DNA from: an uncultured virus (IMG/VR IMGVR_UViG_3300033998_000157)
Taxonomy: Duplodnaviria; Heunggongvirae; Uroviricota; Caudoviricetes
Reading direction: 5' to 3' (one strand)
DNA: 64,000 nt
Virus record (IMG/VR): IMGVR_UViG_3300033998_000157
Below, in pieces: positions 4,855 to 52,683 of this stretch; the stretch's first letter is position 1, and the number at the start of each line of letters is the position of its first letter. Made by a program: the position numbers and the translations under genes. The notes beneath the pieces were generated by a model. That model ran no database searches and was not told where the DNA came from. It worked only from the letters and a program-made list of their open reading frames with translations.

Positions 4855-5586
4855 ATGTCTAAAGTAATTGCGTTTTATAATGTGAGAAAAGGTGTAGGGA
4901 AGACTTTTTTAAGTTATTTATTTGGAGCATCTTTGGCATATAAAAACGTGCTTTTGATAGATATGAATCCTCAGGATGATTTAACTAATATGTTATTGAA
5001 TGAACGTGATTTAAAATTTGTTGGTGGATTAAATAGTGGAATGATATTTTCTGACAAAGACTTTTTGTATAATGATATTGTTTTTGATAGTAAAATAGAA
5101 GGGTTAAAGATAATACCAGCACATTTGTCTTTGGTAAAACATGAGATTCCGCAATTTGAACAAAGCGATTCGAGATTGAAGATGTTTATAGAGAGACATT
5201 ATAATGAGTTCGATTATATTTTGATAGACGGGCCATCGACGTTAGGGAATTTGGCATATAATATCATACAAGCTTCTGATAGTATAGTTATACCTGTTAA
5301 GCCAGAAATGCAAGCCGATATAGGTATTATATTGACTTATAATGTAATAAATAGATATACAAATAAGGACGTAGTTTGTGTAATGAACAAAGTGAATGGT
5401 GAAAATGAACGGTATGCGAAAGATCTAAATGCGAAATACGGTAGAGTGTTTATAGATGAAGTTGTTTATGATATGGAAGAAGATTTGAAGGAATGGAAAC
5501 GTAAAGGAATGAAAGACTATGTTCTATTGTCATCGAAAAACTTTACGATTATAAATGGAGTTTTAAATAGAAAAGTATTTGTATAA
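4855..5586 (+). CDS. parA: ParA/Soj family ATPase (divergent, no adjacent partner)
   Basis: NVRKGVGKT Walker A variant, LLIDMNPQ, DYILIDGP, ASDSIVIPV. Confidence 0.85.
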   Translation: MSKVIAFYNVRKGVGKTFLSYLFGASLAYKNVLLIDMNPQDDLTNMLLNERDLKFVGGLNSGMIFSDKDFLYNDIVFDSKIEGLKIIPAHLSLVKHEIPQFEQSDSRLKMFIERHYNEFDYILIDGPSTLGNLAYNIIQASDSIVIPVKPEMQADIGIILTYNVINRYTNKDVVCVMNKVNGENERYAKDLNAKYGRVFIDEVVYDMEEDLKEWKRKGMKDYVLLSSKNFTIINGVLNRKVFV

Positions 5587-5725
5587 AAAGAGCCTCCGTG
5601 TTGGAGGCTTATGCTTTCTAATATGGGGTTTTATATGTTGAGATACTGTACTAAAAAAGCGTCTGGAAAAACCAGACGCTGGGCCGTAAAGGCAATTAAA
5701 TTCAGTTAGGGTCGTATAGACACAG

Positions 5726-6289
5726 TTAAATTTTAGCATACGGGCTTTTATATATTATTTCTAAATAAGGGCTTTCATAGAGATCTTGAGGTGAACACCA
5801 TTCATCTTTTTCGCAAACTGGAAGTCCTATTTCTCTATATACTCTTGCAACTGCTTCTGAACAAATGAGTGCATCTTTATTATCTCCACCCATTTTATCT
5901 TCGAGAAGTTTTTCTAATCCGAAAGCTGTACCTAATTCTGCTACGCCGTTTTTTACTAGTGATGTATAATCATATGGAACATTCCAATATTTTTTCATAG
6001 CTTCTTGAATTTCTGTATAGTTAGATAACTTTGGATGACGTAAAATAGTAAGTTTAGAAAGTGTCTACATATTATGTTCTATAATGTGTGTTCCGGCTCC
6101 TGTGGCTGCTAATACATAGTTAGATGAATAAACTATCTCAGCGTGGATATATTCATTGCGTGATAAAAGCATCTATGTATCTGCTACCCATTTACCGAAT
6201 GTATCCTATACTGTTTGATAAAGATCTAATCTGGTTGGGAATAATAAAATATCTCCTGGTTTTAATGAAAAAGCTTCTATGGTTTTCAT
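5726..6289 (-). CDS. permuted papain-like NlpC/P60 (YiiX/YebB-like) protein; 3 in-frame TAG
   Basis: with TAG as sense: LKPGDILL, YIHAEI, PYDY, ICSEAVARVY; ATG overlaps the upstream TGA. Confidence 0.8.
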
Positions 6290-6678
6290 TTTACCACCTT
6301 CTCTATTAAAACGAATGTTGAAGCAGAGTCTTTGTTTTCGTAGATATCAATTATTTTGAAGTTAGAGAATAAATAGCTTGCATATTTATAAGAAATTCCT
6401 ATAAACTTATATTCTGTATCGACTTTATCGAATTTTAAAATGAAACCTTCTTTATCTTCTGATGTTTTTGTGAAAGGTCTTGAAAAGAAAATAACCACTT
6501 CTTCAACTGTCTAATTTTTAAATATCATTACAGTTCTTTCTGCTTTTTCAGCTTCTTCTATGGTAGCAAATACTGTTTTGCTTTGAGGTTTAAATGTCTA
6601 ATAAGTTATAAATGCACCTACCTAAAGTGCAATCTAAGTTATGATAGCCACCCAGTTGTGCCAGTCAATTTTAATCAT
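6286..6678 (-). CDS. membrane-anchored protein; 4 in-frame TAG
   Basis: MIKIDWHNWVAIIT*IAL*VGAFITY*TF forms one transmembrane helix if *=Ala; AGGAG RBS. Confidence 0.75.
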
Positions 6679-6964
6679 TGATTTTCACTCCTATTTTTTT
6701 AGCAATAGATGCTTTTGCCTAAATAAGTTGCATAATTTCTTCTTCTAATTCTTCATCTTCTATGGTGGTTATAAAATCAATTCCTGCGTCTACTAAATAT
6801 AATCCAAGATTGTTTGAAACTTTATCTGCTTGTTCATCTCCTAATTTGCTTCTTAGCAATTCAACAAGTTTTTTAATATATTTTTCTGGATCTGCTTTAA
6901 CAAGTAAAATTCCAGAAGCGAATGTTAAACCTGCACCTACTATAAACCATAATAATCCTTCCAT
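6671..6964 (-). CDS. small membrane protein, holin-like candidate; 1 in-frame TAG
   Basis: AGGAGG RBS, N-terminal TM helix; TAG read-through ends at a TAA overlapping the next ATG. Confidence 0.65.
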
Positions 6965-7032
6965 GATAACACCTCCTATGATTTTGTTCAAATGTTAATT
7001 AACAAATGAGACTTAAAAAAGAGGTGATTGAT

Positions 7033-7344
7033 ATGGAAGAAATTATAGATATTTTTAACGATATCTCTAATTTTGTATTAAAAGCCGTATATTAGTCTTA
7101 TAATTCTCGAACAATGAAAGAAATGAAGTATTAGTATCAAAATTTAATAAAGGAAGATATTAAGAATATTATTGCAGAAAGGTTGTCTCGTATTTTTGTA
7201 ATTGATAAAATTAAATTGAAACAGTTAATTGAAAATTATATTGTAATAATTATTAACTTTGAAAAGCCTGATGTAATAGTAAAAATCCCATTTGTATTTT
7301 ACGAAGAACTATTGAAAACAACAATAGTTCATGATATAAAGTGA
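7033..7344 (+). CDS. hypothetical protein; 2 in-frame TAG
   Basis: GAGGTG RBS, open to TGA when TAG is sense; absent from the ORF track. Confidence 0.7.
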
Positions 7345-7375: not shown

Positions 7376-8083
7376 TTAATAACCTCTATCTTGTCTATCG
7401 AAATTTTCGATATTTTTAATTACATATATTTCTAATACCAATGGTTGATAATAGTCCTTCATAGTAGTTGCATACGTAATACTTGCATTATTAAATGAAT
7501 TCAATAACATTAAATATAAAAATCTTATTCTGTTATTTAATTCTTGTGCATCAAATTCTGTATAATTTTTCCAATGTTTCCAATGAAGTTTTTCTAAAAT
7601 ATACGATAGTTGATAAATGTATCTTCTGATTGTAAGTTCGCCATTTAATTTTGCGTATTCAACATTTAATATTTCTTTTGCGTCATTTACAATTTCTTCT
7701 TTATAATTAGCTATTTCGCTTAAATCATAACCCTTTTCCTTTACTACTGATAATAATGCTAATTGTAAAACAAAATGTATAGCATCTACTATTTCAAACA
7801 TTTCTTCAAAAGCAATTTTTCTTATTGTTTCATTGATAGTATTTTTCCATACATCATATTCTATTAATTCGTCCATTATAGATAAAACCATGTTGCTCAT
7901 AAGCTTATCTAATCCGTAATTCCATAATTCTTTTTTGTTAATGATATATACCATAAGATCGAATTGAAGATCTAACATTATTTCTATATCTTTCATGCCT
8001 AATCCTTTCTTTTGTTTTATAATGTCACGAGCTTTTATTCTGTTATTAGCGAACACACTATCCATGTGTTTGGTATCACTCAT
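7376..8083 (-). CDS. dimeric all-alpha dUTPase-like protein
   Basis: DELIEYDVWK and EEMFEIVDAIHFVL motifs, WKHWK, KNIENFDRQ..GY end. Confidence 0.75.
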   Translation of the reverse strand: MSDTKHMDSVFANNRIKARDIIKQKKGLGMKDIEIMLDLQFDLMVYIINKKELWNYGLDKLMSNMVLSIMDELIEYDVWKNTINETIRKIAFEEMFEIVDAIHFVLQLALLSVVKEKGYDLSEIANYKEEIVNDAKEILNVEYAKLNGELTIRRYIYQLSYILEKLHWKHWKNYTEFDAQELNNRIRFLYLMLLNSFNNASITYATTMKDYYQPLVLEIYVIKNIENFDRQDRGY

Positions 8084-8702
8084 TTATTTCTACCTCCTTT
8101 TCTTCACTCAATTGCTTTTTAGTCATTTCGATAGTATAACATTCTAAACAAAGAGGGATATATTTATCTTCTCCACCAACGTCTATAACATTATCGCTAC
8201 CTTCTTTTTTAAATGAGATTGTTCTTCCAATAGCACCACATTTTCTACATACACCTGATATCTTTTCTACTTTATCTGCAATAGCCATTAAATTAGCTGT
8301 AATTTTAAAAGGTTCGTTTTTATAATTCACATCTAATCCAGCTACATATACATTTACATTTGTAATAAGTGCTGTTTTTATTATACCAATAATATGTTCA
8401 TCAAAAAATTGTATTTCATCTATGAAAATTGAATTGAATTTATCTTCTGTTCTGTTTAATAATTTAATTATATCAGACACATGTTCTATGACCATTGCTT
8501 GTTCAGAAGCTCCGTTATGCGTTTTAATTGCACTAAATTTAACGCCGTCTATATCTATAATATCATCATATCTTGTGTCGATTGCGGGTTTTAATAATAT
8601 AACCTTTTTGCCTGCTCTTTTATGCATGTCATAAGTGTTTAATAAAGCGGAAGTCTTACCAGAAAACATCCCCCCTACATACATTGTTAATTGCCCAGCC
8701 AT
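8076..8702 (-). CDS. tdk: thymidine kinase
   Basis: GGMFSGKT, KPAIDTRY, IDEIQFF, VAGLD, zinc cysteines, VGGEDKYIPLC. Confidence 0.95.
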   Translation of the reverse strand: MAGQLTMYVGGMFSGKTSALLNTYDMHKRAGKKVILLKPAIDTRYDDIIDIDGVKFSAIKTHNGASEQAMVIEHVSDIIKLLNRTEDKFNSIFIDEIQFFDEHIIGIIKTALITNVNVYVAGLDVNYKNEPFKITANLMAIADKVEKISGVCRKCGAIGRTISFKKEGSDNVIDVGGEDKYIPLCLECYTIEMTKKQLSEEKEVEINE

Positions 8703-8713
8703 TTTATCACCCC

Positions 8714-9175
8714 TCAGAATAAAGGTTTTTTAGGCATTTGTTTTTTATCGGCAATAATAATATTTTTAGATGATATAGAATCTTTTGCTTGTTTAATAAT
8801 AGCTGTTTTCATGGCTTTTATATTTTCTTTTATATTATCTCTGTCGGCAAATAAATACATAATTTTATATAGCTCATTCTTAATTCTATCTATATGTTTC
8901 TGATCTTCCTCTGTAATTGTAAAGTCTATATTTTCTATATCCTTTTCTAATTCATTTAAATTACCATAGTTAAAATTGCCAATAAATTTATTCATTTCGC
9001 GTGCGTTTAAATAAAAGTTTGTAGCATATCTATCTATTACTTCTGTCACATCTGTTTCTTCTGGTGTGATAACCAATTCAGATAAAATACCTAATAATAA
9101 GTTTGCTACTTGCAATCTGTTGTCAAAATCAGTAAATAGTTGTTGAAAATACATGCCTAAATTGTTTTGATCCAT
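8714..9175 (-). CDS. hypothetical protein
   Basis: ORF with probable ATG at 9175 after AAGGAG. Confidence 0.65.
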   Translation of the reverse strand: MDQNNLGMYFQQLFTDFDNRLQVANLLLGILSELVITPEETDVTEVIDRYATNFYLNAREMNKFIGNFNYGNLNELEKDIENIDFTITEEDQKHIDRIKNELYKIMYLFADRDNIKENIKAMKTAIIKQAKDSISSKNIIIADKKQMPKKPLF

Positions 9176-9268
9176 GCTATCAACTCCTTTTATAAATTTC
9201 ATTATAATTATATATGCAGGAGTCAAAAATAACTAAAAAAGCGAGGCATTAAGCCCCGCTTAGTTTAA

Positions 9269-9538
9269 TTAAAACAATTCTTTTAATGTTTTTGATGCTT
9301 TAAATTTAACAGCTTTGTGAGCAGGAATTACAATTTGTTCTTTTGTTTGTGGATTAACTCCATTTCTTGCTGCTCTTTCTACTACCTCAAATTTACCAAA
9401 ATCTGGCAATGCTACATAATCTTCTTTCTTTAATGCTTCTTTTGTAACTTCAACAAATGCATCTAATACAGCATCTACTTCTTTTTGTGTTATACCTGTT
9501 TTTTCAGAAATTGCCTTTAATAATTCTTTCTTTGTCAT
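9269..9538 (-). CDS. hup: HU family DNA-binding protein
   Basis: MTKKEL, FGKFEV, RAARNGVNPQT, VKFKASKTLK. Confidence 0.95.
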   Translation of the reverse strand: MTKKELLKAISEKTGITQKEVDAVLDAFVEVTKEALKKEDYVALPDFGKFEVVERAARNGVNPQTKEQIVIPAHKAVKFKASKTLKELF

Positions 9539-9553
9539 TTTATCTCCTCCTTA

Positions 9554-9931
9554 TTAATTTTTGCTATAATATTCTTCTAATGTATCTGAATAATAATCTT
9601 TTTTATTAATTATATAATAAGTATTAGTGAAAATTTCGTTATCGATAACATAAAATTCACCATATGCACCGCGAATAATCCAATCATACATTTTCCATTT
9701 TAAATATCCTTCTAACGAAAATACGTGTAAAGTGGCATCAGTAAATTTAACAAATGTACCTCGTTTTCCTCGCCAAATTTTACCTTTGTTTTCTTCTATT
9801 AATTCAGGCGTAATTTGCACTACTTCAATAGCAATCGGTCTTTTGAGTGCACTGTTAAAGTATTTTTTATAGTCTTTATATTCCACATCAACAAAGCTGT
9901 ACTCGCTCACCTTTGCACCTCGCTTATACAA
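9554..9931 (-). CDS. PGDYG-like phage protein (true start may be the GTG near 9910)
   Basis: KRPIAIEVVQ, LEG, DWIIRGAYGEFY, IFTNTY pattern. Confidence 0.6.
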   Translation of the reverse strand: MYKRGAKVSEYSFVDVEYKDYKKYFNSALKRPIAIEVVQITPELIEENKGKIWRGKRGTFVKFTDATLHVFSLEGYLKWKMYDWIIRGAYGEFYVIDNEIFTNTYYIINKKDYYSDTLEEYYSKN

Positions 9932-10004
9932 ATCTCCTGGATTATTATATTATCAAATAGAAAATAACTTATTTATATTAATCTTGAATATTGTGGTTTT
10001 AAAC

Positions 10005-10119
10005 AAGGCAGCATAGATTCGGATATAAAACCGATAATTACTATCAGATAATTTTTAATATTTATAGAATTTTTAATATTTATAGTAAGCAATAAATAAT
10101 ATGTTGCTGTTGCTGCCTT
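10005..10119 (-). ncRNA. candidate small RNA B (terminal stem plus ACAGCAA)
   Basis: AAGGCAGCA pairs with TGCTGCCTT; ACAGCAA directly after the 5' arm. Confidence 0.5.
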
Positions 10120-10136
10120 TAATTACTAAATTGTCA

Positions 10137-10200
10137 AGGCTGACTATTCCCTGCAATTTCTAAACGACTGCAGTATATAAACTTTTTGCTGTTTCAGCCT
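10137..10200 (-). ncRNA. candidate small RNA A (terminal stem plus ACAGCAA)
   Basis: AGGCTGA pairs with TCAGCCT, ACAGCAA after the 5' arm, internal CTGCA/TGCAG hairpin, TGCTATAAT promoter 8 nt upstream. Confidence 0.55.
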
Positions 10201-10208
10201 ACACTTAC

Positions 10209-10217
10209 ATTATAGCA
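10209..10217 (-). promoter_or_regulatory. extended -10 promoter (TGnTATAAT)
   Basis: perfect TGCTATAAT with no CDS start close downstream. Confidence 0.6.
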
Positions 10218-10235
10218 CAGCCTACAAAAGATAAT

Positions 10236-11669
10236 TTATTCTAAAATATGTTCGTACGCTTTTAATATGTCTAACATCATTAAATATGGATTTATTTCTT
10301 CGTCGTTTATGATTTTTTCTACTATTTTTGGATTAAAACCACTAAGCAAAACAGTCCCTTTTTCATCTTTCTTAACTGGCACATTGCCATAATCATTTAA
10401 ATTCCAGAATACAATTTGTGGTAATTGATATCCATGTTCTTTAAACAGTTCCTTGGCGTATTCATATGTCGAATAACCCTCAACACAACTATCAAATTGC
10501 ATATCAGATAATATAATTAGATTTTCTGGTAAATCTTCTTGTTTTAAATTGTTTTTTATAGCAGTCCTTAGAATTAAGTTAAATACTTTGCTAATGTCTG
10601 TGTTTAATCCCCAATCGCTTTGTTTTACAATATTAGCTTTTTCTTTAAATGTACTGCCTTTTATTTCTATTAATTCTGGTTCTTCGCTAAATGTTATAAA
10701 ATAGTTTTTAAATTCTGACGAATTATGTTCAGCAAGATACATTCCAATAGTTACAGCTATATCTATTGCTTCATAATTGCTATAGATTGTAGCTTCCATT
10801 GAAGCAGAAACATCTACTATAGGCAAATATTTTAAATCTGTATTTGGTTTTGGAAGGTTTCTCCACAAAGCGTCTTGTAATGTTTCGTCTCTTATTCTAA
10901 TTACTTCATGAGGATATATTGCATTAGCGTTTACTTTTCTTTTATTATTCTTCAAATCTTCTAAAAATTTATTAAAATGTTCTTCGTCATTTCTCAAGAA
11001 AGCCTTATAATACTTATTCATTGCTTTTGAAGGTACTTGTGAATATTCAATTTCATTGTATGTTCTAAATGTAATATTCCTTTCTACAACCTTTAGATAT
11101 TTTCTTAATTTTGTCAATGTTTTTCTATACTCTCTTGGTGTCATATTAAAATGTTTCATAGTCTTTTTAGCTAAATATTTCGTTCTATACGAAGAAGCAT
11201 TTTCTGACTTTAACCATTTCGCTAATAATGAAATTGATTTGCATTCTTTCATATTCTTAATATCATCAATTAATTGTTGTTTCATAAACTCAAACACATC
11301 GTATTCAACTTCAGTTCCAACAAGTGAATACAAATCGTCCCACCTACCGTATTCTGGAACATATTTAATTAACTTTCTTGTTAATTCTGGATCATCGTTT
11401 CCAACATATTTCAATGCGCATCTAAAACCTTCTCTGATGCCTTGTCCGTTTCTTATATCTCTTAAATAAAACAAAGCTAATATTGCTAATTCTTTGTTTT
11501 CAATATAAGCATTTCTAAACAGATCTAAGAAATCATTTGGACGAGCTATTAATGTGCCACCTCTATAGAAAAAATCCAAAACATAACTCGTTGTACTCTT
11601 AAATGCTTTATCACCATTTAGTGTCGTTGTTTCATTTAATTCGTTTTTTAGCAAATCAATAAAACCCAT
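10236..11669 (-). CDS. DUF2828 family TROVE/Ro-like protein with C-terminal vWA domain
   Basis: TLNGD..F.ST, LFYLRDIRNGQG, YGRWDDL, LAKWLKSE, DVSASM MIDAS-like motif, SDMQFD, IVFWNL. Confidence 0.85.
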   Translation of the reverse strand: MGFIDLLKNELNETTTLNGDKAFKSTTSYVLDFFYRGGTLIARPNDFLDLFRNAYIENKELAILALFYLRDIRNGQGIREGFRCALKYVGNDDPELTRKLIKYVPEYGRWDDLYSLVGTEVEYDVFEFMKQQLIDDIKNMKECKSISLLAKWLKSENASSYRTKYLAKKTMKHFNMTPREYRKTLTKLRKYLKVVERNITFRTYNEIEYSQVPSKAMNKYYKAFLRNDEEHFNKFLEDLKNNKRKVNANAIYPHEVIRIRDETLQDALWRNLPKPNTDLKYLPIVDVSASMEATIYSNYEAIDIAVTIGMYLAEHNSSEFKNYFITFSEEPELIEIKGSTFKEKANIVKQSDWGLNTDISKVFNLILRTAIKNNLKQEDLPENLIILSDMQFDSCVEGYSTYEYAKELFKEHGYQLPQIVFWNLNDYGNVPVKKDEKGTVLLSGFNPKIVEKIINDEEINPYLMMLDILKAYEHILE

Positions 11670-11685
11670 TTAATCACCCCTTTTA

Positions 11686-11985
11686 TTAATCAGTGGAGTT
11701 ATCGGTTTTTAAGTTTGATACAACATCATAATAAGGATTATTAATGTTGTTGTCGTTTTTAAATCCGTTATTATAGTGTATATGTGTAATTACAGTACTT
11801 TCTTTTTCTTTTATTAAATATTCATTTTCTAATTTTAAACGCATATTTTCCTCTTTATATTTATCTAATAAATCTTTTAAATGTTCGCATTTATATTCTC
11901 TTTCAGATTCAAAAAACGGACTTAAAATCATAGTTAATATTGCACCTACCAAAAATCCAGACAAAATATATGCGAAATCAGTCAT
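11686..11985 (-). CDS. membrane-anchored coiled-coil protein
   Basis: N-terminal TM helix, AGGAGGAG RBS. Confidence 0.65.
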   Translation of the reverse strand: MTDFAYILSGFLVGAILTMILSPFFESEREYKCEHLKDLLDKYKEENMRLKLENEYLIKEKESTVITHIHYNNGFKNDNNINNPYYDVVSNLKTDNSTD

Positions 11986-12179
11986 TTTATCTCCTCCTTA
12001 ACTTTGTATTTTTCTAATTGTTCTTTTAATATCTGATTTTCTAATTTTAATAATTCATTTTCAATTTCTTTTAAAAATAATTTAGATGAATATTTAGAAA
12101 AATCATTTACATTAACTAACGCTATAGATAATATTCCACAGGAAAATCCTGCAAAAAAGCTATTATTAAATCAAGCATA

Positions 12180-12767
12180 TTACCATTCCTTTCTGGATTT
12201 AATTTCTTTCTTATTTTCATACATCTGTTTATCAATATTTTCTATAATTTCTTTTAGTGTTTTGTTATTATCATATCTAATTTCGTAATAACCAACCGCA
12301 AATCCATAATCGCTAATTTCACTAAATTGTATTCTTGATTTTTCAATTCTGTGTTTAAAAATAGCTATAGGTATATTCATTGCAAATAGCAAAAATTCAT
12401 CTCCGCCTGTACGAACTATAATATCATCGCTTCTGAAATTTGATTTTAAAATTCTTACAAATTCCTTAATCACATAATCTCCTTGTTTGTGACCTTGAGT
12501 ATCGTTAATTAGCTTTAAATTATTGATATCAAATATTGCTATAACACCGTGTTTATGTTCCTCTAATGCTTTTTGTATATATAGTTCCCCATAGTGCTTG
12601 TTATACGTGTTGGTAAACATGTCTTTAGTCGCTGCTTTCTTTGTTCTAATAAGTTTAAGTTTCATATACAAAATCACTAATACCCATGTTACATATAATA
12701 ACAATGGCTCAGGTAGAAAAAACCAACCTTTTATTATGTAAATTATCGTTGTAGCTATCACCAACAA
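12180..12767 (-). CDS. membrane-bound GGDEF diguanylate cyclase (RBS-led ATG at 12796 is 1 nt out of frame)
   Basis: DINNLKLINDTQGHKQGD, RSDD I-site, RTGGDEF, two N-terminal hydrophobic segments. Confidence 0.85.
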   Translation of the reverse strand: MLVIATTIIYIIKGWFFLPEPLLLYVTWVLVILYMKLKLIRTKKAATKDMFTNTYNKHYGELYIQKALEEHKHGVIAIFDINNLKLINDTQGHKQGDYVIKEFVRILKSNFRSDDIIVRTGGDEFLLFAMNIPIAIFKHRIEKSRIQFSEISDYGFAVGYYEIRYDNNKTLKEIIENIDKQMYENKKEIKSRKEW

Positions 12768-12800
12768 ATGAATTAGAATTTTATAAAAGACTCCATAGTA

Positions 12801-13301
12801 TCACCCCAATAACTTTTTTAATTTTTCTATACCTTCTTGCTCTCTTTCTTGCGATACAACATTTCTATCGATTTCAATTTGCGTAGGTTCTTTTTTGAAT
12901 ATTTCTAATATACTATCTAATTCTTCTTTTGTTATTTCTTTTATATGATTTAAATAATATTTCGTATTTCTGTTTAAATATTTTTCTTTTGTTATATTCA
13001 CAAAATCATCTACAAATAAAGCAAATTTGAAATCATCTTCGTTAATATTATCTATCTTGACCATATCACCAAATTCATCCTCGACAAATATATTTTCAAT
13101 TTTAAAACGATTATCAGCATTTAATATAATAAAAATACCTTCGTGCTGTATATATATTTTTAATTCATAATTATGGAATGCTAATTGTACATTAGTGCCA
13201 TTGATTGTTGTATAATTAAATTCAACCATATCATTTTCAAAAAATAATGAAACCATATCATGTATCCTCATAACATCATCCTTCCACGCCAAATAGTTCA
13301 T
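12801..13301 (-). CDS. hypothetical protein
   Basis: 166-aa ORF inside the operon. Confidence 0.65.
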   Translation of the reverse strand: MNYLAWKDDVMRIHDMVSLFFENDMVEFNYTTINGTNVQLAFHNYELKIYIQHEGIFIILNADNRFKIENIFVEDEFGDMVKIDNINEDDFKFALFVDDFVNITKEKYLNRNTKYYLNHIKEITKEELDSILEIFKKEPTQIEIDRNVVSQEREQEGIEKLKKLLG

Positions 13302-13557
13302 CTAATGCTTTTTTAGAAAATCCAAAGAACGGATACAATCCTTCTTCTGCTGGAATCAAAATAATAGGATATGTAACTGGCAAATTATTTTCTTTAAATT
13401 CTTTTGTTAAATGTCTTTTTAGTTCAATGTTAGCATCTTTAAAATGGATATATAAAAATTGCACTCCTAAGTTTCTGAAATAATTTTTAGCTTTCTCACA
13501 TGCCTCGCAATCTTCTTTACCGAGAATTATGATTATATTATCAACAAGTGTTTCCAT
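13276..13557 (-). CDS. glutaredoxin-like protein
   Basis: CEAC redox motif, TYPIIL cis-Pro region, FFGFS. Confidence 0.8.
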   Translation of the reverse strand: METLVDNIIIILGKEDCEACEKAKNYFRNLGVQFLYIHFKDANIELKRHLTKEFKENNLPVTYPIILIPAEEGLYPFFGFSKKALDELFGVEG

Positions 13558-14180
13558 GCTGTGCCTCCTATTCTATCTAATTCTTTTTTAATATCTTCAA
13601 AACTTTCTTCAGGTGTTTGGTTGCCATTAATCGTATAAACTATACTTAACGTAAAATTCTCAAATACAAATTTGTACCCTTGCCTTACTTTATCTAACTT
13701 ATCTATTACAGTTTGTTCCATTCTATCTAATTTATCTCTTTGAATTATTCTCTTAGCTGCAATTTCAGGTTCTGTATCTATAAAAAATACAATATCTGGT
13801 GTATATCCTTTCAATACCTTACTATTTATTTCCATTACTTTTAAAACATTCATAATACTATGCTTTTCTGGTTTTACATATCCTTGATATACAAGAGATG
13901 AAATTACAGATCTATCGGTTAAAATAACTGCTTTATAATAATACTTTTCATATATGTGTTTAACATTATATGCTCTGTCGGCTGCAAATAATAAAATTTC
14001 CGTATCTAATGGAATATCATTATCTGGATTTAATAATATATTTCTAATTTGATTTCCGAATTCAGTACCTCCTGGTTCTTTTGTTTTTATGACTTTATTT
14101 TTCTTGCTTAAATATTCATATGTCATTTCAAATAATGTACTTTTACCTGAACCGTCTATTCCTTCAAATGCTATTATCAT
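13533..14180 (-). CDS. tmk: thymidylate kinase
   Basis: AFEGIDGSGKST, KEPGGT, LLFAADR, TDRS..SSLVYQG. Confidence 0.95.
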   Translation of the reverse strand: MIIAFEGIDGSGKSTLFEMTYEYLSKKNKVIKTKEPGGTEFGNQIRNILLNPDNDIPLDTEILLFAADRAYNVKHIYEKYYYKAVILTDRSVISSLVYQGYVKPEKHSIMNVLKVMEINSKVLKGYTPDIVFFIDTEPEIAAKRIIQRDKLDRMEQTVIDKLDKVRQGYKFVFENFTLSIVYTINGNQTPEESFEDIKKELDRIGGTAWKHLLII

Positions 14181-14680
14181 CCGATCTCCTCCTGCATTTC
14201 AATAACATCTGTATTAGCTTCTATAATACTTATATTTTTTATAGAATAGCTATAATCTTCTAATTTAATGAAAGATTTTGCTATATATTCAGCATTTTCT
14301 ATTGAGATTGCTGCTCCTACACATATAGAATTATTCAAAACGACTATATATCTTACTTTAAATGGATTTTCGATGATTTGTTTGTATTCGTCTTTAGAAA
14401 CAAGAACTTTTTCCGATACAAAATCATATTTATCATGTTGGAAATCGAATGCTTCAATTGCTGAATTTCTAATTTTTTCTAAATCTTTCATTCTTTTAAA
14501 AATAAAAACCATTGATAAATTATCTTTAACAACATTTGACTGTTTTAACAGCAACATATAAGCATATTTTAAATTATATTTTCGCTCTGGAGATAAAGGA
14601 ATTATATAATTAAGTTCAATGATAATCATAAGAAAAGAAATAACTATAGTAACAAATATAATTACGAGCACTTCTTGCAT
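14177..14680 (-). CDS. hypothetical membrane-anchored protein
   Basis: N-terminal TM segment; ATGA overlap with tmk. Confidence 0.65.
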   Translation of the reverse strand: MQEVLVIIFVTIVISFLMIIIELNYIIPLSPERKYNLKYAYMLLLKQSNVVKDNLSMVFIFKRMKDLEKIRNSAIEAFDFQHDKYDFVSEKVLVSKDEYKQIIENPFKVRYIVVLNNSICVGAAISIENAEYIAKSFIKLEDYSYSIKNISIIEANTDVIEMQEEIG

Positions 14681-14684
14681 GTAA

Positions 14685-14918
14685 TCAACTCCTACATTTT
14701 TTACTTAATCTAATCATATCTATCAAAATAATTACGCCAAATATTGTATACAAATACATATATACATTATCACCAGTTCTTATATAACTAAAAAAAGCAG
14801 TCATGAAAAGTGTTATAACACCAAAATCATACCAAGCAGTGTGTTCTTTAATGTTTTTTTGATAATCGTAAACCATTACAATAATTAACGACACGACAAA
14901 CATATACCAATTAAACAT
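14685..14918 (-). CDS. small multi-pass membrane protein
   Basis: ATG after GGAGG; three hydrophobic segments. Confidence 0.6.
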   Translation of the reverse strand: MFNWYMFVVSLIIVMVYDYQKNIKEHTAWYDFGVITLFMTAFFSYIRTGDNVYMYLYTIFGVIILIDMIRLSKKCRS

Positions 14919-15045
14919 GCAACCACCTCCAAAATTTACTGTTTTTCTGCTACGTTTATATTGTATCAACCTATTGTGATAATAACTTAATTAAAAAAGC
15001 GGTGTCCGCCAGTAAGACGACCACCGCATATATAATCGTGTCATG

Positions 15046-15833: not shown

Positions 15834-15880
15834 TTTACCCTCCTTATTTTTATTAAAAGCATGCCCGAAGGCATGCCGTA

Positions 15881-20524: not shown

Positions 20525-20537
20525 GCTCTCTACCTCC

Positions 20538-20876: not shown

Positions 20877-20889
20877 ATAATCATCTCCA

Positions 20890-21573: not shown

Positions 21574-21677
21574 ATTACCACTCCTTTCTGTTTATGTATA
21601 TTTATTGTAACTTACTCGGCAAGATATAACTTCAACTGTTAATTTATCATTAGAAATAAAAAAGGAGGTTTTTAAAA

Positions 21678-24408: not shown

Positions 24409-24412
24409 TATA

Positions 24413-25396: not shown

Positions 25397-25446
25397 TTTA
25401 GAAATGATATTATATAATTATTAAAAAAGAGAAAAGGAGTGATATA

Positions 25447-28052: not shown

Positions 28053-28142
28053 AATATTAATAACAAAAAATGGCCTTGGCATATGCCAAGACCAGAAAGG
28101 AGGGGGAATATGTAAAAGGGGGAATAATACTATGAAACTTAT

Positions 28143-44133: not shown

Positions 44134-45564
44134 ATGGGTTTATTTGATGTTTTTAGAAGAAAAAATGATGTGCAAGAAGATATATTGTATGCTGATTAGT
44201 CACAACTAATAAACAAAAAAGAAAAAAAGTTATATAAAGGATTAAAAACATTTGGAGAAAATGCTTTTGAAACCAACTCTTCATTATTTAATTAGTATAG
44301 AATTTATAGATAGGATAGTATTTTAAAACAAACTGTTGCAATGTATGTAGAACTTTGTGTTAATAATGGGTTTGATGTTCATAGTTCGGACGAACAAATC
44401 AATAAAAAAATTAAACAAAGAATAAAAGAGATAGAATTTAATTCTAATTCTACAATGTATGAATTAGTAAGAAATGGTCTTAAAAATTTCATATCGTTAG
44501 GTAATTAGATGTTTTTATTTTCTCGTAATGCAAATAATGCTTCTGGTAAACCTTACATGTATAATAATAAACAATTAAATCCTATTTCAGGAATCTTTCA
44601 AGCACATCCTCTTACTTTGTCAATAAAAAGAAATTCGTTTGGAGAAACTACACAGTATAAAATGGACTTATCAATGTTGCAAAGAGATTTTGGATTCTTT
44701 ACTAACGATCCAGAATTCAACGTGTTGGTTGGAGACACTTTCGGTTTAACAGACACAAGAAAGTTTGATAAATATGATGTTGCACACTTTAAATTCGATG
44801 AAGACATAATCACAGGTTTTGGAAGACCATTCTATTTTGAAGCTATTGATGATTTATTAATTTTAAGAAAAATTGAAAGAATAATTGAAGAGCTTATATC
44901 AGAAGGCAAATTGTTCTATGTGTTATATAGAGTAGGTAATGATAAACATCCTTCAAGATCTCAAAAAGAAATAGATCAAATGAAATAGTTAATTGATTCA
45001 GTAAGTCCATATTAGGCAATTGTATAGCCACATAATCATTCTATGGAAATGCATACAGCAAATATCTTAGGCAACATATTAGGTTTTTATGACAAAATTA
45101 GACACAGAGTGTATGGTGCATTAGGTTTATCATCTGTAATGATGGGTGAAGCTGGATAGGCTAATAGGGCAACGGCTGAAACTTCAACAAATTTTGCTAT
45201 TATAAAAGCGAAAGAATTCCAAAACTTATTCTCATAGCAATTCCAACATGAAGTATTAGAACATTTAGTAATTGATTTAGGATATAATCCAAAACAATTA
45301 GGTGATGCTATGCCTAAATTGAAATTTAATGAACCTGATATAGATACATTAATTAAATATCAAAACCAAATAGTTTATATGTATGAACATTCTGCAATTA
45401 CACAAACAGAAATGAGACAAAAATTAGGATTTAATCCAAAAATTGATGAAAAAGACATGTATATTTATAAAGTAAAAATACCAGCATAGATTGCGGGAAA
45501 AAGTTTTGATAACACTGCAGAAACTAATAATAAAGTAAAACCTCAAAATCAACATACTAAATAA
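44134..45564 (+). CDS. portal protein; TAG-recoded
   Basis: 476 aa; HPLTLSIKRNSFGE, VAHFKF, GFGRP, DDLLILRKIE; lies between terminase and protease. Confidence 0.8.
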
Positions 45565-45604
45565 GTTAATTTACTATTGTAGATAATTGAAAGGAGGAAT
45601 TTAA

Positions 45605-46885
45605 ATGCTACATATTAATACAAAGTTGGTGATCCAAGATGAGTTAAAAGATTAGGAGACACCGAGCTAGATTAAAGTTTGGATAGCTGCGACGCATAGT
45701 GATACACCTATAAATTATAGGTTATACACAAAAGAGGAAATGCAAAAGGCTGTAGATAGCTGGACACATCCTTATCAAAAACCTGTATTATTACATCATG
45801 ATGATTTAACAGATGCTATCGGTAGAGTAGTAGATGCTGTATATATTTCTAAAGAAGAATGGAATTAGAAAGTAAAAACATTAACTGGTAGACAAATTGC
45901 TTTACCACAAGATGCAACAGGAGGTATTTTAGTAAAAGCATATATTACAGATGAAGGTGCTATAAAGAAAATTTTAGGTGGCAACTACACAACAGTAAGC
46001 GTAGGATTTAGTGCAGAAGATATGATATGTAATATTTGTGGCAAACAAAAAATGAGCTGGTTGGATGATGATGAAGAAAACTATTGTTCTCATGTTACTG
46101 GAGAAGAGTACGACGGAGTTGTAGCTTATAATGTTCCACTTGGTATAGAATATAAAGAGATAAGCTTTGTGAATAAACCAGCTGATAGTTATGCAGGAAT
46201 AGTAAAATTAGAAAAAACTTCTTTAGAAAATGCATTAAAAGAAGTTAAAACAGAGTTATTTGAACAAAATTAGAATGTTAATTCAGATTTGAGAGATAAT
46301 GAAAATGTTAATACACATAAGGAGGTTATACAAATGGAAGAAATTAAAGCATTAAAAGATGAATTAGAAAAAGCTAAAAACAGCTATTAGGATTTAGAAA
46401 AACAACACAAAGAGTTATTAGACAAATACGAAGCTTTAAAATCAGAATATGATAAATTACATGAAACATTAAAAGAAGAGTATGCTTCAAGAGTTGCTTC
46501 ATTAAAAGGTATACTAATGGAAGCATCAGATGAAGAAATAGAAGCATTAAAAGAAAAGTATAAAGATTTATCAATTGAAACTTTAAAACTTTTAGAAGAT
46601 GAATATAAAGGATTAGTAGAAAGAACATTAGAAGATGAAGAAAAACAAAAGGTTGAAGAAGATAAAGAAGAAACAAAAGAAGAAGTTGCAGAAGAAACAG
46701 AAGAAAAAGAAGAAGTTAAAGAAGATAAAGAAGAAATTGAAGAAATAAAGGAAGAAGATAAAGAAATCGTTGAAAAAGAACAATCAGACAGTGTTAATTT
46801 AGAAAAAGAAAAGGATCCTCAAAAAATGCACAATATTTTATCATTAGAGGATAAAATAGAAGAAATATTAGGAATTAGAAAATAA
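45605..46885 (+). CDS. prohead protease with C-terminal scaffold domain; TAG-recoded
   Basis: KPVLLHHD, AIGRV, TVSVGF, CNICG..CSH, EISFVNKPAD; acidic coiled-coil tail with in-frame AAGGAGG-ATG at 46334. Confidence 0.85.
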
Positions 46886-46913: not shown

Positions 46914-47744
46914 ATGGCTAAATTTGTACAAAACTCATTACCATTATACAATGTGGTAAAACACGAAAAGATGAGAGAATATTCAGATGGTATCAGAATT
47001 GGCGGAGGTTTAAAGTTCAGACCAGCACCTTACTTACCAATTAAAGAATATGATGAAAACTTACACAAAGGTGTTGTTATCAAAAAAGGTGATTTTGTAA
47101 CATTAGATGAAAACGGATATTTAGTACCTGCATTTGTAGGTGAAAAAGCATTAGATTATACTGCATTAGATGTAGCAGAAGGAGTATATGACATTGATGA
47201 CTTTGGTTAGGGGAATGCAAAAGTTTCAGCTGCTAAAACTTCAACATTAAAAATCGGTACAACTGCAACAGCTGATGTAAAAATTGGAAAACCATTCGGT
47301 ATTGCAATGTACGATGTATATGCATGGGATATGGATGCAGATCCATGGTATCAAGTACAAAATCCTGTAACAGTATTAGCTGACAGAATGATATTATTAG
47401 CAATTGATACAGATCACAACAGTGTTGCTTACGAATCAGGTGACATCTTAGTATTAGATGACAAAGGATTCCCAGTACCATTCAGTTATTCATTAAATGA
47501 TACAGACACAATATCATTAGCAAATTCTGTAAAATCAGCATTAGATAGCTTAAAATATGCAATAGGTAGAGTTGTAAAAGTTATAGATATAAATGCTGAT
47601 CCAGAATGGAGAGGCGGATTAGAATACGTAGAATACAGACCAGAAGACTTTGAAATTGACTTACCTGGAAAAGCAAATGGTGGAGTAACAGATGGTATTG
47701 ATAAAGATACAAAGAAAGGTTTATTAATTCAATTAGAATTTTAA
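46914..47744 (+). CDS. putative head decoration or capsid-associated protein; 1 TAG
   Basis: joins ORFs 46914 and 47307 across TAG 47208-47210; sits between scaffold and capsid genes. Confidence 0.7.
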
Positions 47745-47778
47745 TATAATTTAAAATACAGTATAGGAGGTATGAAAC

Positions 47779-48984
47779 ATGGAATTTAAAGATTATATAA
47801 ACGAAGTGGTAGAAGAAAAAATAAACGAAATTATTGTTGGAGACACAGACGTTGTAAAATAGTTAAAAAGAATTTCAGAAGAAGATTAGAAAGTAGAATT
47901 AGTAAAAAGAATTATAAGAAACAATGGTAAATTATCAGATTCAGTTTCCAAAAAATTTGAATTACAAGACTTAATTACATCACCAGAATTTTCTGGAACA
48001 TTCCCAAAAGTTATAACAAAAATGGCAGCAGAAGTATATGAAAATAAATTAGTTATCACACAATTCTTAGAAGAAATGAATGTAGATCCAGGACCATCAT
48101 TAACAATACAAGTACCACAATTTGTAGGTGCATTTGGACAAGACTTAGATGTAGATGAATCTGGCGAATACCCAGAATTGAACCTAAAAATGGCTGGCGG
48201 AGCAGTAGCAACAGTAACAATTGGTAAAGTAGGTATCGCAGTTTCATTAACAGAAGAAACAATCAGATATTCAAGATTTGACATCGTCAACGCAGCAGTT
48301 AACGAATAGTTAAAAGCTATGGCAAGATGGAAAGAAAGAAAAGCAATTAAAATGTTCTATGAAAGTGCAAAAGTTATTAAAAATGGTGGATCAGGAGTAG
48401 ATGTATCAGGAACAGCTAACGGTGGTTTAACATTAGATGACATCGTAGATGTTGCATTACAATTTATGGAAAAAGGATTCAATGCAGATACAATTATAAT
48501 GCACCCATTAGCATATCCTGTATTTGCATTAAACGGAACATTAAGATCATTCTTCTGGGCATCAATTGGAGAAAAAGGTCAATTCTATAACTGGCCACAA
48601 GTATCTGGCGGACAACCTAAATTCTATGAAAGAATGGGTAAAACATTAGATTTAAACGGACAAAATATTGTTGGATTCGAATTACCAACAGGTATATTAG
48701 GAAAACCAATGAGATTAATCTTATCACCAGCTGTACCATACAACAAAGATACAAAGAAAACAGATATTATCGTATTAGACTCAGAAAACTTAGGTTACTT
48801 AATTACAGCTGAAAAACCAACAACAGATGAATTCAATGATCCAATGAGAGATATTAAACACTTCAAAGTAAAAGAAAGATATGGAATGGCACCAAAATAC
48901 GATGGTTCAGCTATGGGTATCATCAAAGATGTATCTGTAGTAGAAACATTTGACCCAAGACCATTCTTTGTAAAACAATTATAA
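47779..48984 (+). CDS. major capsid protein; 3 TAG
   Basis: 401 aa; ESGEYPE, KVGIAVSLTEETIRYSRFD, MARWKE, IIMHPL, KERYG; strong RBS and following terminator. Confidence 0.88.
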
Positions 48985-50222: not shown

Positions 50223-50583
50223 ATTGTTAAATAAAACTGGCGTTTATATATATATAGAATAGGAAGATAAAAAAACGTACATTTTAAAATAGCCAGTAAA
50301 AATATCTAACAACTATTTATCTTTATAGGAACCAAAACAATCGTCTGATGTAATGGTTTTTTCTGATTTGAAATTTTTATAGTTCATTGATAAAAAGTAT
50401 AAAGTTAAACCTGCGGTTGGCAAAAGCATAGGAACTGTTGATTTAAATTAGAACAAAGAAGTATCAGAATTCAAAAACGAATTTGTAATAGAAACTGTAA
50501 TGGAATTAGTATATGAAGGTAAATTTTATGGTTATGTTGTGTATGGCAATACATAGGAGGTAAGAAAATATGCTAAAGACTAA
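50200..50583 (+). CDS. putative head closure/neck protein; TAG-recoded
   Basis: 127-aa frame; function from position only. Confidence 0.6.
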
Positions 50584-51157
50584 TATTCAATCTAATATTG
50601 AAGTAATAGATCTTGTGGCAAAAGCATTTACTTAGTACTTAGAAGCAACAAATAGAGAATACAAAATAGCTATAAAACCATTATAGTCAGAAAAGAATTT
50701 AATATCATAGAATGAAAATGTATTGCTAATATATAAATTATATAAAAAACAATAGGGTAGTGCTAAAAAACCATTTGAAGAACGCACATTTTTAAGACCT
50801 TATTTTGTTAATTCAAATATAGGAGTTGGAGGAATAACATAGTACGAAAATTTTGAGTTCTTTTTTGACAATATGTTTGAATTTCAATTTTATTCCCAAG
50901 ATTATTTTATACTAACAAGATAGGCAGAAGATTTTATTGCATATATGGGTATGCTTTCAACTACTAAAAATGTGTTTTCAGAAAACGGCATTAAGTTACC
51001 TATATTTTGGGAACAAACACAGGATGAAATAGTGGAGGTCGGAAATACATTTTTATATAAATCATCATTATTCTATTAGTTCCAAACAAAACAAACTATA
51101 AGTAAATAGTTAGATGTTATAAGAAAGATTAATACTTATGTAGAATTAAGTCAATAA
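50570..51157 (+). CDS. putative tail completion protein; TAG-recoded
   Basis: AGGAGG-ATG, 195 aa, directly before the sheath gene. Confidence 0.6.
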
Positions 51158-51186
51158 TTTCAACATATTAAAGGAGGTATTTAAGC

Positions 51187-52683
51187 ATGGCAGATTTAAG
51201 ACTTTATCCTAACTTACCTGGAGTAGTATCAAGCATTTCAGCAGAAACATTAGTTCCAGAATTAGATGATTCTAAACCAAAATTCTTATTAGTTGGTTGG
51301 CATTCAGAAGATGCATTTGCAGATGGTACACCAATATTATTCAACGAACCTTACTTCATTTTAAACTCAACAATGCTTTCATCAATGTTCGGTGACACAG
51401 AAGGATTAGGATTACATGCTAAAATTATAGGAACTACATCAAACTGGGAATTATTACCAGTATTAGTAAGAGTAGGTAAAGTAGACATAAAAGCTGGTTC
51501 AGGTGCAGATGTTGATACCGCAAAAGGAGCATTATCTTAGGCAACAGCAGATGGTAATGTAACAGGAACAGTTGCAAAAGTTTCTTGGTCAGGAGAACCA
51601 ACATGGAAAGCTAACTACACATTAAAAGTTGTTGTATCAGGAACAAATATAGATGTTTATTTAAACAATGCAACAGAACCATTAGTATCTGGCGATTCAC
51701 CATTAAATATTGAAGAATTAGGTTTAAAAGTTGAAGGTTTAGCAGACGGAACAGAATATTTTGCATTCCAATATGCTGTAGAACCAACAACTGACGATGA
51801 AAAAATCAGTGCATTAAAATTAGCATTAGACGAATTAATTGGATTAGAAATTAATTACGTATACTCACCATTTGCTGTATTAGATGACGCTGGAACAACA
51901 GATCACTTTGCTACAGTATTAGCTGAATTTGCTGAAAAACAAAGCAGCCAATACAATAACGTATTAGCATATATAGGTGTAAAAGCTCCTTCTAATTATA
52001 CATATTCCGCTATTAAAAAATGGGTAAATGACTTAAAAGCTTTAATGTCAACTGGCGGAACATTTGAAAATGGAATTGTATCATCAGGAGGAGCAGATGT
52101 AGGACACAGACTTGTAATTGTAGCAGGACACGGTATTGTAGAAAATGTATCAAATGTAAAAGTTGATTTAGCTTCATATGTAGGAGCTTACTTACATGCA
52201 AATAAAGTTTATACTGGACCAATTAATTTAGAACTTACAGGAGTAACATTATTAGAATCATTATCATTAAAACAAGTAAATGAATTATCAGGACATAGAA
52301 TAACTGCATTATATAACAAACCAGGATATAATAAAACACCTGTAATATTAGTTGGTAGAACAGCAGCTCCAATCACAACACCATTTACAAAAATTTCAAG
52401 TATAATGGTTGTTAATGAATTTGTAAATGGATTAAAAAATATTGCAGATACATATTTAGGAAGACCTAACAGTGGTACAGTAAGAATGAGCATGCAATCA
52501 ACAATGCAAAACTTTGCAAACTCAATGAAACAAGCAGGAAAAATAGCAGGTGCTGTAGTAACAGTAGAACCTGATGTAACAAGCGGAACAATTAATGCAT
52601 TAGCAGTTAAAGCAAGAGTACAAGCATTTGCAGAAATCGAAGTAATTTCTATTGATGTTACTTTTGAATATCAAATAGCTTAA
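51187..52683 (+). CDS. tail sheath protein; 1 TAG
   Basis: YPNLPGV N-terminus; C-terminal sheath domain (YLGRPN, AFAEIEVI); joined across TAG 51538-51540. Confidence 0.85.

Follow-up and report, generated by a model that had tools for sequence, protein, structure and literature searches.

In the phage genome analyzed here, two genetic codes are divided by gene class, and the use of TAG as a sense codon tracks a promoter-like motif that is also found upstream of the tRNA expected to decode it. We favor, at a probability of about 0.6, an explanation in which an alanine tRNA is transcribed late, so that transcription would be the primary switch and TAG a second lock. The window, i.e., the whole stretch of DNA analyzed (64,000 nt), belongs to a contig of 135,633 bases, a linear fragment without end overlap (CheckV completeness, 66%).

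Code 11 gives the window a coding cover of 43%, which changes to 79% when TAG is read as sense and to 47% when TGA is. Twelve named genes for replication, maintenance, and nucleotide metabolism (both parA genes, tdk, tmk, two nrdJ parts, thyX, the nuclease, rep, HU, a dUTPase-like gene, and polC, which sits outside the window) contain no TAG against 242 GCN codons, and all end in TAA or TGA. By gene class, TAG and GCN codons numbered 15 and 441 in the 47 genes of the early block vs 1011 and 1214 in the 58 genes of the late block, only 5 of which are TAG-free. The initial annotation had proposed that maintenance genes lack internal TAG and that late-type genes need TAG read-through, and both statements agree with these counts. 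Termination at TAG is avoided as well: under plain code 11, none of 25 early-block open reading frames of at least 150 aa ends in TAG. In early genes, the TAG triplet is not depleted from the two remaining frames; codon use in the two blocks is alike apart from TAG (RSCU r=0.995); and at the +4 base after TAG, inspected for a read-through preference, C is only slightly in excess. Assembly errors do not account for the TAGs, since contigs from two other runs, one of them from a second study, match the TAG-rich stretches with 0-1 differences. The genes from which TAG is kept out, both as sense and as stop, would be those needed before late expression. Functional labels come from Pfam and PHROG scans of 65 and 48 proteins, plus 18 more, of 105; most of the giant late proteins lie outside these scans.

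TAG very likely stands for alanine, supplied by the phage tRNA. In a profile test of 91 TAG columns, alanine was the best residue, with serine 27.4 and glutamine 61.9 log units behind; 18 of 18 control codons were assigned correctly, and the margin over serine falls slightly short of the values obtained for GCN codons (31.9 to 59.6). That TAG instead means glutamine, as in code 15, or serine is hardly credible. Serine did lead alanine by 3.2 log units in a cruder per-site test of 40 sites, and database translations of close relatives carry Q at TAG columns. However, that Q is how the database renders TAG, as in all 21 of 21 TAGs of the sister contig L108, and it sits on alanine columns: database Q does so in 46 of 118 cells, vs 0 to 8% for most residues and 16% for serine. 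Close database homologs were thus rejected as proof of a glutamine code. Opposite TAG, terminase relatives show A 89, S 30, and Q 16 times, and true glutamine columns show Q 143 times. The short variable loop and alanine identity set of the tRNA likewise argue against glutamine or serine. Capsid and PhoH queries found no DNA of relatives in viral or genome contigs; a metagenome scan with PhoH gave, among the matches listed, at least 80 distant PhoH loci, all without stops.

The suppressor tRNA (anticodon CUA; 28143..28217, minus strand) is the only tRNA in the contig. It carries all five determinants of bacterial tRNA-Ala (G2-C71, G3.U70, G4-C69, A73, and G20; PMC9976931), and this set is also complete in the tRNA of a sister phage. 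One 75-base gene suffices as a decoder, because alanyl-tRNA synthetase ignores the anticodon. No gene for this enzyme was found in the contig (66% complete), and the host synthetase is predicted to charge the tRNA. We rejected tRNA-Ala(CGC) of a standard-code relative, G003, as the suppressor's ancestor, since it has no G3.U70 and low likeness; GenBank phages held no close tRNA, the best match being 80% over 62 of 101 bases. A terminator-like hairpin with a T run follows the tRNA (28071..28094, minus strand), and the late-class motif WGTTAATTHA (28290..28299, minus strand), a predicted promoter, lies 81 nt upstream, where no sigma70 site of at least 9/12 was found. The tRNA is probably not constitutive, and since it carries the same motif as the TAG genes, it is likely a late transcript.

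WGTTAATTHA is present in the leaders of 16 of 21 TAG genes vs 2 of 30 TAG-free genes (Fisher 3e-7). With a permissive assignment of operons, those bearing the motif contain 58 of 60 TAG genes and 1022 of 1026 TAGs. At two flanking positions that had no part in their selection, 18 of 18 copies agree, and 20 of the 28 genome matches fall within 100 nt of a start. The motif is short and has no -35 box, and a search of the contig (66% complete) with Sigma70_r2 gave no match, so no sigma factor was found to read it. Its positions are promoter-like, and we predict that it serves as the promoter of the late class; it could also be an operator or an RNA element. Sigma70 scores did not separate the leaders of TAG and TAG-free genes overall (P=0.14), and both 12/12 sigma70 sites lie ahead of TAG-free genes. 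At the left end, six genes of a small TAG-free array (933..4340, minus strand) stand behind GTGTATTGTAC, 34 to 40 nt upstream, which is predicted to mark immediate-early promoters.

TAG genes outside the late block also go with the motif. An island of four TAG genes within the early block (5726..7344) carries the late motif in a palindromic double form at 6994-7003; it encodes a protein with a weak C92 amidase match and two membrane-anchored proteins, a putative lysis set. A coiled-coil protein with a C-terminal hydrophobic segment (21678..22181, plus strand) has TAG at codon 2 and a late motif at 21638, and a PhoH-like ATPase with 13 TAGs (28357..29523, plus strand), divergent from the tRNA, has one at 28320.

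The early genes include a plasmid-type replicon. A Rep3-family initiator (26289..27614, minus strand; PF01051, E 8e-9) has no TAG among its 18 alanine codons and a 12/12 sigma70 promoter at 27677-27649, and ten iteron-like repeats, mostly 21 to 22 bp apart (27731..28052), form a predicted plasmid origin. Also TAG-free are parA, a 327-aa gene with a weak HTH match, and a PD-(D/E)XK nuclease (23563..26262, plus strand); a second parA-like ATPase (4855..5586, plus strand); and, except for a broken methyltransferase at about 15000-15833, the nucleotide-metabolism block (7376..21573, minus strand), with dUTPase-like, tdk, HU, GGDEF, glutaredoxin, tmk, split intein-bearing nrdJ, and thyX genes. Iteron-type phage-plasmids are marked by Rep3 with adjacent iterons, by ParA with ParB and a centromere, and by extrachromosomal maintenance. 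In our contig, the initiator and its adjacent iterons are present, and partition is represented by the two ParA proteins and, after parA, the gene with only a weak HTH match. A tyrosine integrase search of the contig (66% complete) gave no match, and the Rep query matched nothing in PLSDB or in eight related genomes. The replicon thus backs the plasmid-like latent state suggested earlier, and from it we infer that the phage may persist as a plasmid.

Among virion genes, TAG use varies widely. The terminase large subunit (38911..40641, plus strand) has 16 TAG and 25 GCN codons, and the portal and a protease/scaffold-like gene (44134..46885, plus strand) have 10 and 5 TAGs. By comparison with GCN, TAG is sparse in a putative decoration gene (1/22) and the major capsid gene (3/23; both in 46914..48984, plus strand) and in the tail sheath gene (1/47), which is followed by three tube-like genes (11/39; 51187..54742, plus strand). 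A late gene located where a tail assembly chaperone would lie (56582..57049, plus strand) is TAG-free (0 of 6 alanines), and so is its homolog in the sister phage (0/6). The labels "decoration" and "lysis-like" derive from position and hydrophobicity, no family match having passed the cutoff. The single TAG of the decoration gene (starting at 46914) is codon 99 of 276, those of the capsid gene (47779) are codons 28, 37, and 177 of 401, and that of the sheath gene (51187) is codon 118 of 498. The initial annotation's observation that abundant proteins keep few TAGs, all in the first half, is therefore correct; the placement of all five in first halves is weak evidence alone (P=0.064), and their mean position is significant (P=0.004).

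In a set of eight high-copy genes chosen by function, TAG occupies 21 of 180 alanine sites, vs 990 of 2045 elsewhere. Their TAG share falls along the gene (7/18, 3/18, 6/43, 4/64, and 1/37; P=146/20000), while that of 23 size-matched genes is flat. Nonsense errors are predicted to produce such a falling gradient (PMC13271495), and the scarcity and 5' placement of TAG in high-copy genes are consistent with costly premature stops being selected against. The idea that abundant genes have little TAG because their sequences are poorly conserved was not supported: the sheath is 26 to 31% identical to its relatives, with a TAG share of 0.02, and the terminase is 40 to 43% identical, with a share of 0.39.

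The sister phage has the same early/late split and the same type of tRNA. Its nrdJ (0/34 TAG) and polC (0/38; 40% identical) lie on one contig with TAG-rich genes, and its LL-H holin gene has 7 TAG and 4 GCN codons, with the CUA tRNA just downstream. A sheath-like fragment (8 TAG, 9 GCN) runs contrary to a general abundance rule. The strict motif is not enriched in the sister contigs (0.125 vs 0.145 per kb), and a copy 20 nt before the sister tRNA matches in the 7-mer core only. In host-like contigs of the sister's bin, which also contains two release factor genes, 126 of 498 open reading frames end in TAG; co-binning is no proof of a host, and these stops speak against a host that itself uses TAG for alanine. 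The host of our phage probably reads TAG as stop.

The product of 31811..38257 (plus strand; 2148 aa, 101 TAGs) is a predicted two-barrel RNA polymerase, judged from a DPBB fold and the catalytic DxDGD at residue 2083. In structure comparisons, the top nine VIA rows were all RNA polymerase subunits (Z 9.7 to 12.2, rmsd 4.2 to 4.6, 164 to 182 residues aligned; next row, 5.9), for a model with a mean pLDDT of only 49. Foldseek returned only E values above 0.001, and every listed row was an RNA polymerase. Sequence searches against the PDB gave no match, and a single-sequence fold of a piece was unusable (pLDDT 33). Read-through at each codon must be about 98% for genes with 80 to 101 TAGs, and RF1 is therefore likely suppressed by some factor, implying an RF1 antagonist. 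The initial annotation saw no release factor gene in the window, and an RF-1 domain search of the whole contig (66% complete) found none either.

In the explanation that we favor, about half of the likely alanines of late genes would be written TAG and read by the phage's alanine-type CUA tRNA. Since the tRNA and the recoded genes are likely under the same motif, the primary switch is probably transcriptional and TAG a second lock. With late promoters off, in early infection or in the presumed plasmid state, no tRNA would be made, and a leaky late message would thus stop at its first TAG. With late transcription on, TAG would spread largely neutrally in low-copy genes and be purged from high-copy genes, more so toward the 3' end, given that some read-through would likely fail and that an abortion costs more the later it occurs. 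The proposal that the suppressor tRNA acts as a lock stands to this extent, the tRNA being probably not constitutive; its role as the controlling switch is not supported, since it appears to share a promoter class with the genes that it would gate.

It is rather unlikely that selection keeps TAG in virion and lysis genes as a gate, as in the model of Borges et al., whereby the supply of tRNA would set when these genes are translated and would stabilize the plasmid state. Capsid, decoration, and sheath genes each retain at least one TAG, all 5', a placement that a gate would likewise favor; yet five TAGs dealt over the 97 alanine sites land in each of the three genes in 55% of cases, and the TAG share at the start of high-copy genes (7/18 within 30 codons) is not above the neutral rate of 0.48. 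Glutamine (presumed TAG) occupies an alanine column in eight of nine full-length capsid relatives, seven times at codon 28, but shared sites can persist without selection because TAG and GCN are more than one mutation apart. The sister holin upstream of its tRNA and the lysis-like island of the early block bear TAG, in keeping with a gate; against it, a uniform rate predicts one TAG-free gene in the late block, where there are five; one of them lacks TAG in both lineages; and the tRNA carries the late motif as well. As TAG retention in high-copy genes is no greater than chance, selection for a gate is unsupported, and so is a reading of the few 5' TAGs, with a gradient that fits nonsense-error selection, as a designed gate.

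Still less probable is a bistable loop, started by a virion-delivered enzyme or an induced leak, in which the 101-TAG polymerase reads the late motif and needs the tRNA, and the tRNA needs the polymerase. The polymerase fold with its DxDGD, the late motif on both the polymerase operon and the tRNA, the form of that motif, the lack of a sigma factor match in the contig, and the precedent of YonO of SPbeta, which transcribes late genes (PMC5467207), are consistent with such a loop. On the other hand, the size resembles that of the virion polymerase gp66 of phi14:2 (2,180 aa), an enzyme for early genes, middle and late genes there falling to host RNA polymerase; the separate motif ahead of the six left-end genes is a natural target for a virion enzyme; and 101 TAGs would make induction from a plasmid state hard. 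It is an equally long shot that this loop, once fired, is joined by a phage protein that shuts down host RF1 and holds the lytic program in a phage-plasmid family; if true, the two would make a lysis switch that is bistable through the genetic code. A reading without any timing role, in which TAG-free genes are recent gains from standard-code hosts and either the tRNA is made constitutively or TAG means alanine in the host, is very improbable. Some early genes are host-like, as with ThyX, whose nearest solved structure is from Thermotoga maritima (E 3e-85), but neither polC nor nrdJ contains TAG in either of two lineages at about 40% identity or less, codon use is otherwise uniform, early-block islands follow the motif, early genes avoid TAG stops, and TAG serves as a stop in the sister's bin.

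Both the gating idea and the early/late split have been published for phages with TAG as glutamine (Borges, 10.1101/2021.08.26.457843; Pfennig, 10.1101/2022.06.29.495998), and Borges et al. proposed late-gene gating and a role in the lysis-lysogeny choice. As in their crAss-like, Lak, Garnet, Topaz, Jade, and Agate phages, whose hosts use the standard code, reassigned stops lie inside structural genes, early genes fit the standard code, and a low-GC phage encodes a suppressor tRNA. Lysis genes are recoded there; our candidates (8 TAG, 29 GCN) are putative. The pertinent sections of that preprint report only glutamine for TAG and tryptophan for TGA and describe no motif class joining tRNA and recoded genes, whereas here TAG is very probably alanine, such a class is seen, and the latent state would be of plasmid type (Rep3, iterons, ParA) rather than an integrated prophage. 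The split also resembles the dual-coded blocks of Mgcod (Pfennig; Yutin, PMC7886860), where early genes read alike under either code and late genes need the second; those systems pair codes 11/15 and 11/4, and here class follows the motif, across islands and both strands. UAG is read as alanine by an alanine-type tRNA(CUA) in mitochondria of Hydrodictyaceae and Neochloris (PMC6821328) too, but theirs is whole-genome, permanent, and accompanied by an altered mtRF1a; recoding here is partial and apparently stage linked, in a cell that presumably keeps RF1. The polymerase shares its beta-type fold match and DxDGD with the single-chain two-barrel enzymes phi14:2 gp66 (10.1101/2020.03.07.982082) and SPbeta YonO, and its size with gp66, and differs in its TAGs and in having no sequence match to solved structures.

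These results would add a third amino acid meaning to phage stop codon recoding. Public translations of the clade show glutamine where alanine belongs, conserved motifs included, and genes with about 100 TAGs predict an RF1 antagonist that may be of use for genetic code expansion. The motif lets one ask at the sequence level whether recoding sets the timing of late genes or simply trails it; in this phage, the tRNA seems to be induced along with them, and the TAG gradient of abundant genes suggests cost rather than design.

The virus record whose first 64 kb form the window is linear and 135,633 bases long (28.6% GC; completeness rated at 66%). It belongs to a contractile-tailed phage, marked by capsid, portal, terminase, sheath, and baseplate genes, and its capsid protein shares 24 to 27% identity with the capsid proteins of Bacillus phage 0305phi8-36 and related phages. 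Reading TAG as sense raised the coding cover from 43% to 79%, while TGA as sense gave only 47%. TAG-rich stretches recur with 0 to 1 differences in contigs from two additional runs, of which one belongs to a separate study. The gene set comprised 104 called genes and one missed by the caller. CTAG occurs 52 times in the contig, far below the 330 expected, and C precedes 1.4% of TAG codons versus 8.7% of GCN (ordinary Ala) codons.

In close database homologs, Q stands opposite TAG; for the terminase at locus L108 of a sister phage, found as recoded contigs in bacterial bin G001, the database protein shows Q at 21/21 TAG positions. We rejected this as evidence for glutamine, since the close homologs come from recoded relatives whose translations used code 15. 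Twelve close terminases had Q in 46 of 118 cells at columns that are Ala in the 18 next relatives, 3 of which look recoded themselves; the Q share was 16% at Ser columns and 0 to 8% at those of most other residues. In decoding profiles that left out the recoded clade and drew on other homologs, the 91 TAG columns tested (11 genes) ranked Ala first, with Ser 27.4 and Gln 61.9 log units behind, and 18/18 control codons were decoded correctly. A cruder majority test (40 sites) put Ser 3.2 log units ahead, and the Ala-Ser margin of TAG was slightly under that of GCN codons; together, these results suggest that TAG sites lean to positions tolerant of either residue. The only tRNA of the contig (28143..28217, minus strand) has the anticodon CUA and carries the full set of five determinants of bacterial Ala identity given in the consulted portion of PMC9976931. 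A second CUA tRNA, behind an LL-H holin in G001, is identical at 48/75 bases and keeps the determinant set. Among GenBank phages, a search for related tRNAs listed no close one, and none from cultured Aeromonas phages. No AlaRS gene was found in the 66% complete contig, so the tRNA would be charged by the host. TAG is thus very likely alanine, read by the phage tRNA.

The TAG distribution is a real feature. The early block (47 genes at both contig ends) contains 15 TAG versus 441 GCN codons, and the late block (58 genes) contains 1,011 versus 1,214. As the initial annotation had stated, maintenance genes are TAG-free (12 named genes, 0 TAG versus 242 GCN), and under code 11 none of 25 long early ORFs ends in TAG. 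Early genes have normal levels of TAG triplets in their other frames, and the two blocks agree in synonymous codon use (r = 0.995), which excludes base composition as the cause. Recent gene gain does not explain the split either, since on one G001 contig nrdJ (0 TAG, 34 Ala) and polC (0 TAG, 38 Ala; 40% identical to polC of this phage) adjoin genes with 9 to 25 TAG. Judged from these sequence patterns, the split is old and selected.

Several loci have features of their own. The TAG-free block includes a GGDEF-domain gene (12180-12767). At 15881-20524, nrdJ is spread over two ORFs, and a LAGLIDADG intein lies in the second; the sister phage has nrdJ as a single 1,062-aa ORF. An early-block gene at 1404-2141, without the late motif described below, has a lone TAG at codon 113 and may represent two genes or a single read-through. 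A radical SAM gene (contig 107416-109014; L004:116-1711, on a piece of the same contig) has 1 TAG among 18 Ala despite its late-block position; the sister phage has a homolog with 73% identity, much higher than for other genes, and with 0/10 TAG over the part covered.

A predicted promoter, WGTTAATTHA, lies 28 to 66 nt ahead of 16/21 TAG-gene leaders versus 2/30 TAG-free leaders (Fisher P = 3e-7), and flanking positions not used in picking it are conserved in 18/18 sites. Genome-wide, 20 of 28 matches are no more than 100 nt from a start. When operons were assigned permissively, those behind this motif hold 58/60 TAG genes and 1,022/1,026 TAG codons, plus seven TAG-free genes; its presence explains the TAG islands of the early block (5726-7344 and 21678). 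One of the two TAG-bearing ORFs outside these operons is a DNA methyltransferase broken by frameshifts and stops (15000-15833). The tRNA, too, has a copy of the motif on its own strand, 81 nt upstream; a terminator-like hairpin follows the tRNA gene, and no sigma70 site of at least 9/12 precedes it. Support from the sister phage is only suggestive, since its tRNA has a 7-mer motif core 20 nt upstream without the strict motif, and its contigs together showed no enrichment. At the left end, six small genes (933-4340) are each preceded by another conserved motif, GTGTATTGTAC, and have a block in common upstream of it, in what looks like an immediate-early array; the adjacent contig end starts with 35-bp repeats. 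We read these signals as three predicted promoter classes: host sigma70 for maintenance, immediate-early, and late, the last including the tRNA.

It had been proposed that the tRNA locks virion and lysis proteins during a plasmid-like latent state. Such a state is supported by a Rep3 gene whose sigma70 promoter is a perfect match, ten adjoining repeats mostly 21 to 22 bp apart, two ParA genes, and no tyrosine integrase found in the contig; maintenance itself is a prediction. The counts cited for abundant proteins were correct (putative decoration, 1; capsid, 3; sheath, 1), and the 5' placement held for mean position (P = 0.004) more firmly than for "all in the first half" (P = 0.064). "Decoration" and "lysis-like" are labels, the amidase candidate having only a subthreshold C92 match (E = 0.005). 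In eight genes selected by function as high-copy, TAG makes up 21 of 180 Ala codons versus 990/2,045 elsewhere, and the proportion drops from the start of the gene to its end (7/18, 3/18, 6/43, 4/64, and 1/37; P = 146/20,000) but is flat in 23 size-matched genes. The TAG share went down as an Ala-independent expression proxy rose (rho = −0.33, P = 0.026, 46 genes). Capsid relatives show the same lean, with 14 versus 3 TAG in first and second halves, counts that are not independent. Declines with position and expression are described, for yeast data, as a signature of selection against nonsense errors in the portion of PMC13271495 consulted. If TAG had instead been selected as a gate, each gene would retain it beyond chance. 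When 5 TAG are dealt over the 97 sites, however, 55% of draws reach decoration, capsid, and sheath alike; the TAG share at the 5' end is no higher than neutral, and TAG is absent from five late-block genes. Retention beyond chance was thus not seen. In favor of a gate, the sister LL-H holin has 7 TAG versus 4 GCN and lies immediately before its tRNA. Contrary to a general abundance rule, a sister sheath-like fragment has 8 TAG versus 9 GCN. There is a fair likelihood that the lock operates as a by-product.

If each codon were read through at 90%, a gene with 101 TAG would yield almost nothing, and at 98%, 13%. A suppressor tRNA alone is unlikely to reach 98% against RF1, and the read-through needed points to an RF1 antagonist, of which none was identified in the contig, or a very large tRNA excess. 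The 101-TAG gene (31811-38257), preceded by two small genes within one late operon, encodes a 2,148-aa protein, a predicted two-barrel RNA polymerase ending in a conserved DxDGD; RNAP subunits take the first nine places among its fold matches (Z, 9.7 to 12.2; next, 5.9; model pLDDT, 49). In size it resembles the phi14:2 virion enzyme, and it is likely packaged in the virion itself. The phi14:2 enzyme, as described in the available excerpts, transcribes early genes, whereas YonO reads late genes (PMC5467207, in part). That the polymerase reads the late motif, so that it and the tRNA would lock each other, is improbable.

G001 was covered in part (124 contigs). Seventeen contigs were flagged, one of which is a ribosomal operon of the host, joined across TAG stops; at least 16 are TAG recoded (L108, L149, L155, L156, L217, and others; ~94 kb) and may come from two phages. 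The bin has two release-factor genes, and in the other 104 contigs, whose co-binning with the sister phage does not prove that they are its host, 126/498 long ORFs end in TAG. ThyX (20890-21573) is closest, among solved structures, to that of Thermotoga maritima, which, with the subsurface and oil-facility origin of the runs, hints at a Thermotogota host.

An early/late split, dual-coded early genes, and lysis/lysogeny gating are described for TAG=Gln and TGA=Trp phages in the portions consulted of Borges (10.1101/2021.08.26.457843), Pfennig (10.1101/2022.06.29.495998), Yutin (PMC7886860), and work on phAss-1; in those of Borges, only these two reassignments were seen. The Codetta screen passages (PMC8629427) give no bacterial TAG=Ala code, and passages of PMC6821328 report UAG=Ala in green algal mitochondria. 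The listings that our search of openly accessible papers returned contained no TAG=Ala phage. What is new here, beyond published recoding, is the alanine meaning, the plasmid-type replicon, and the promoter-linked tRNA.
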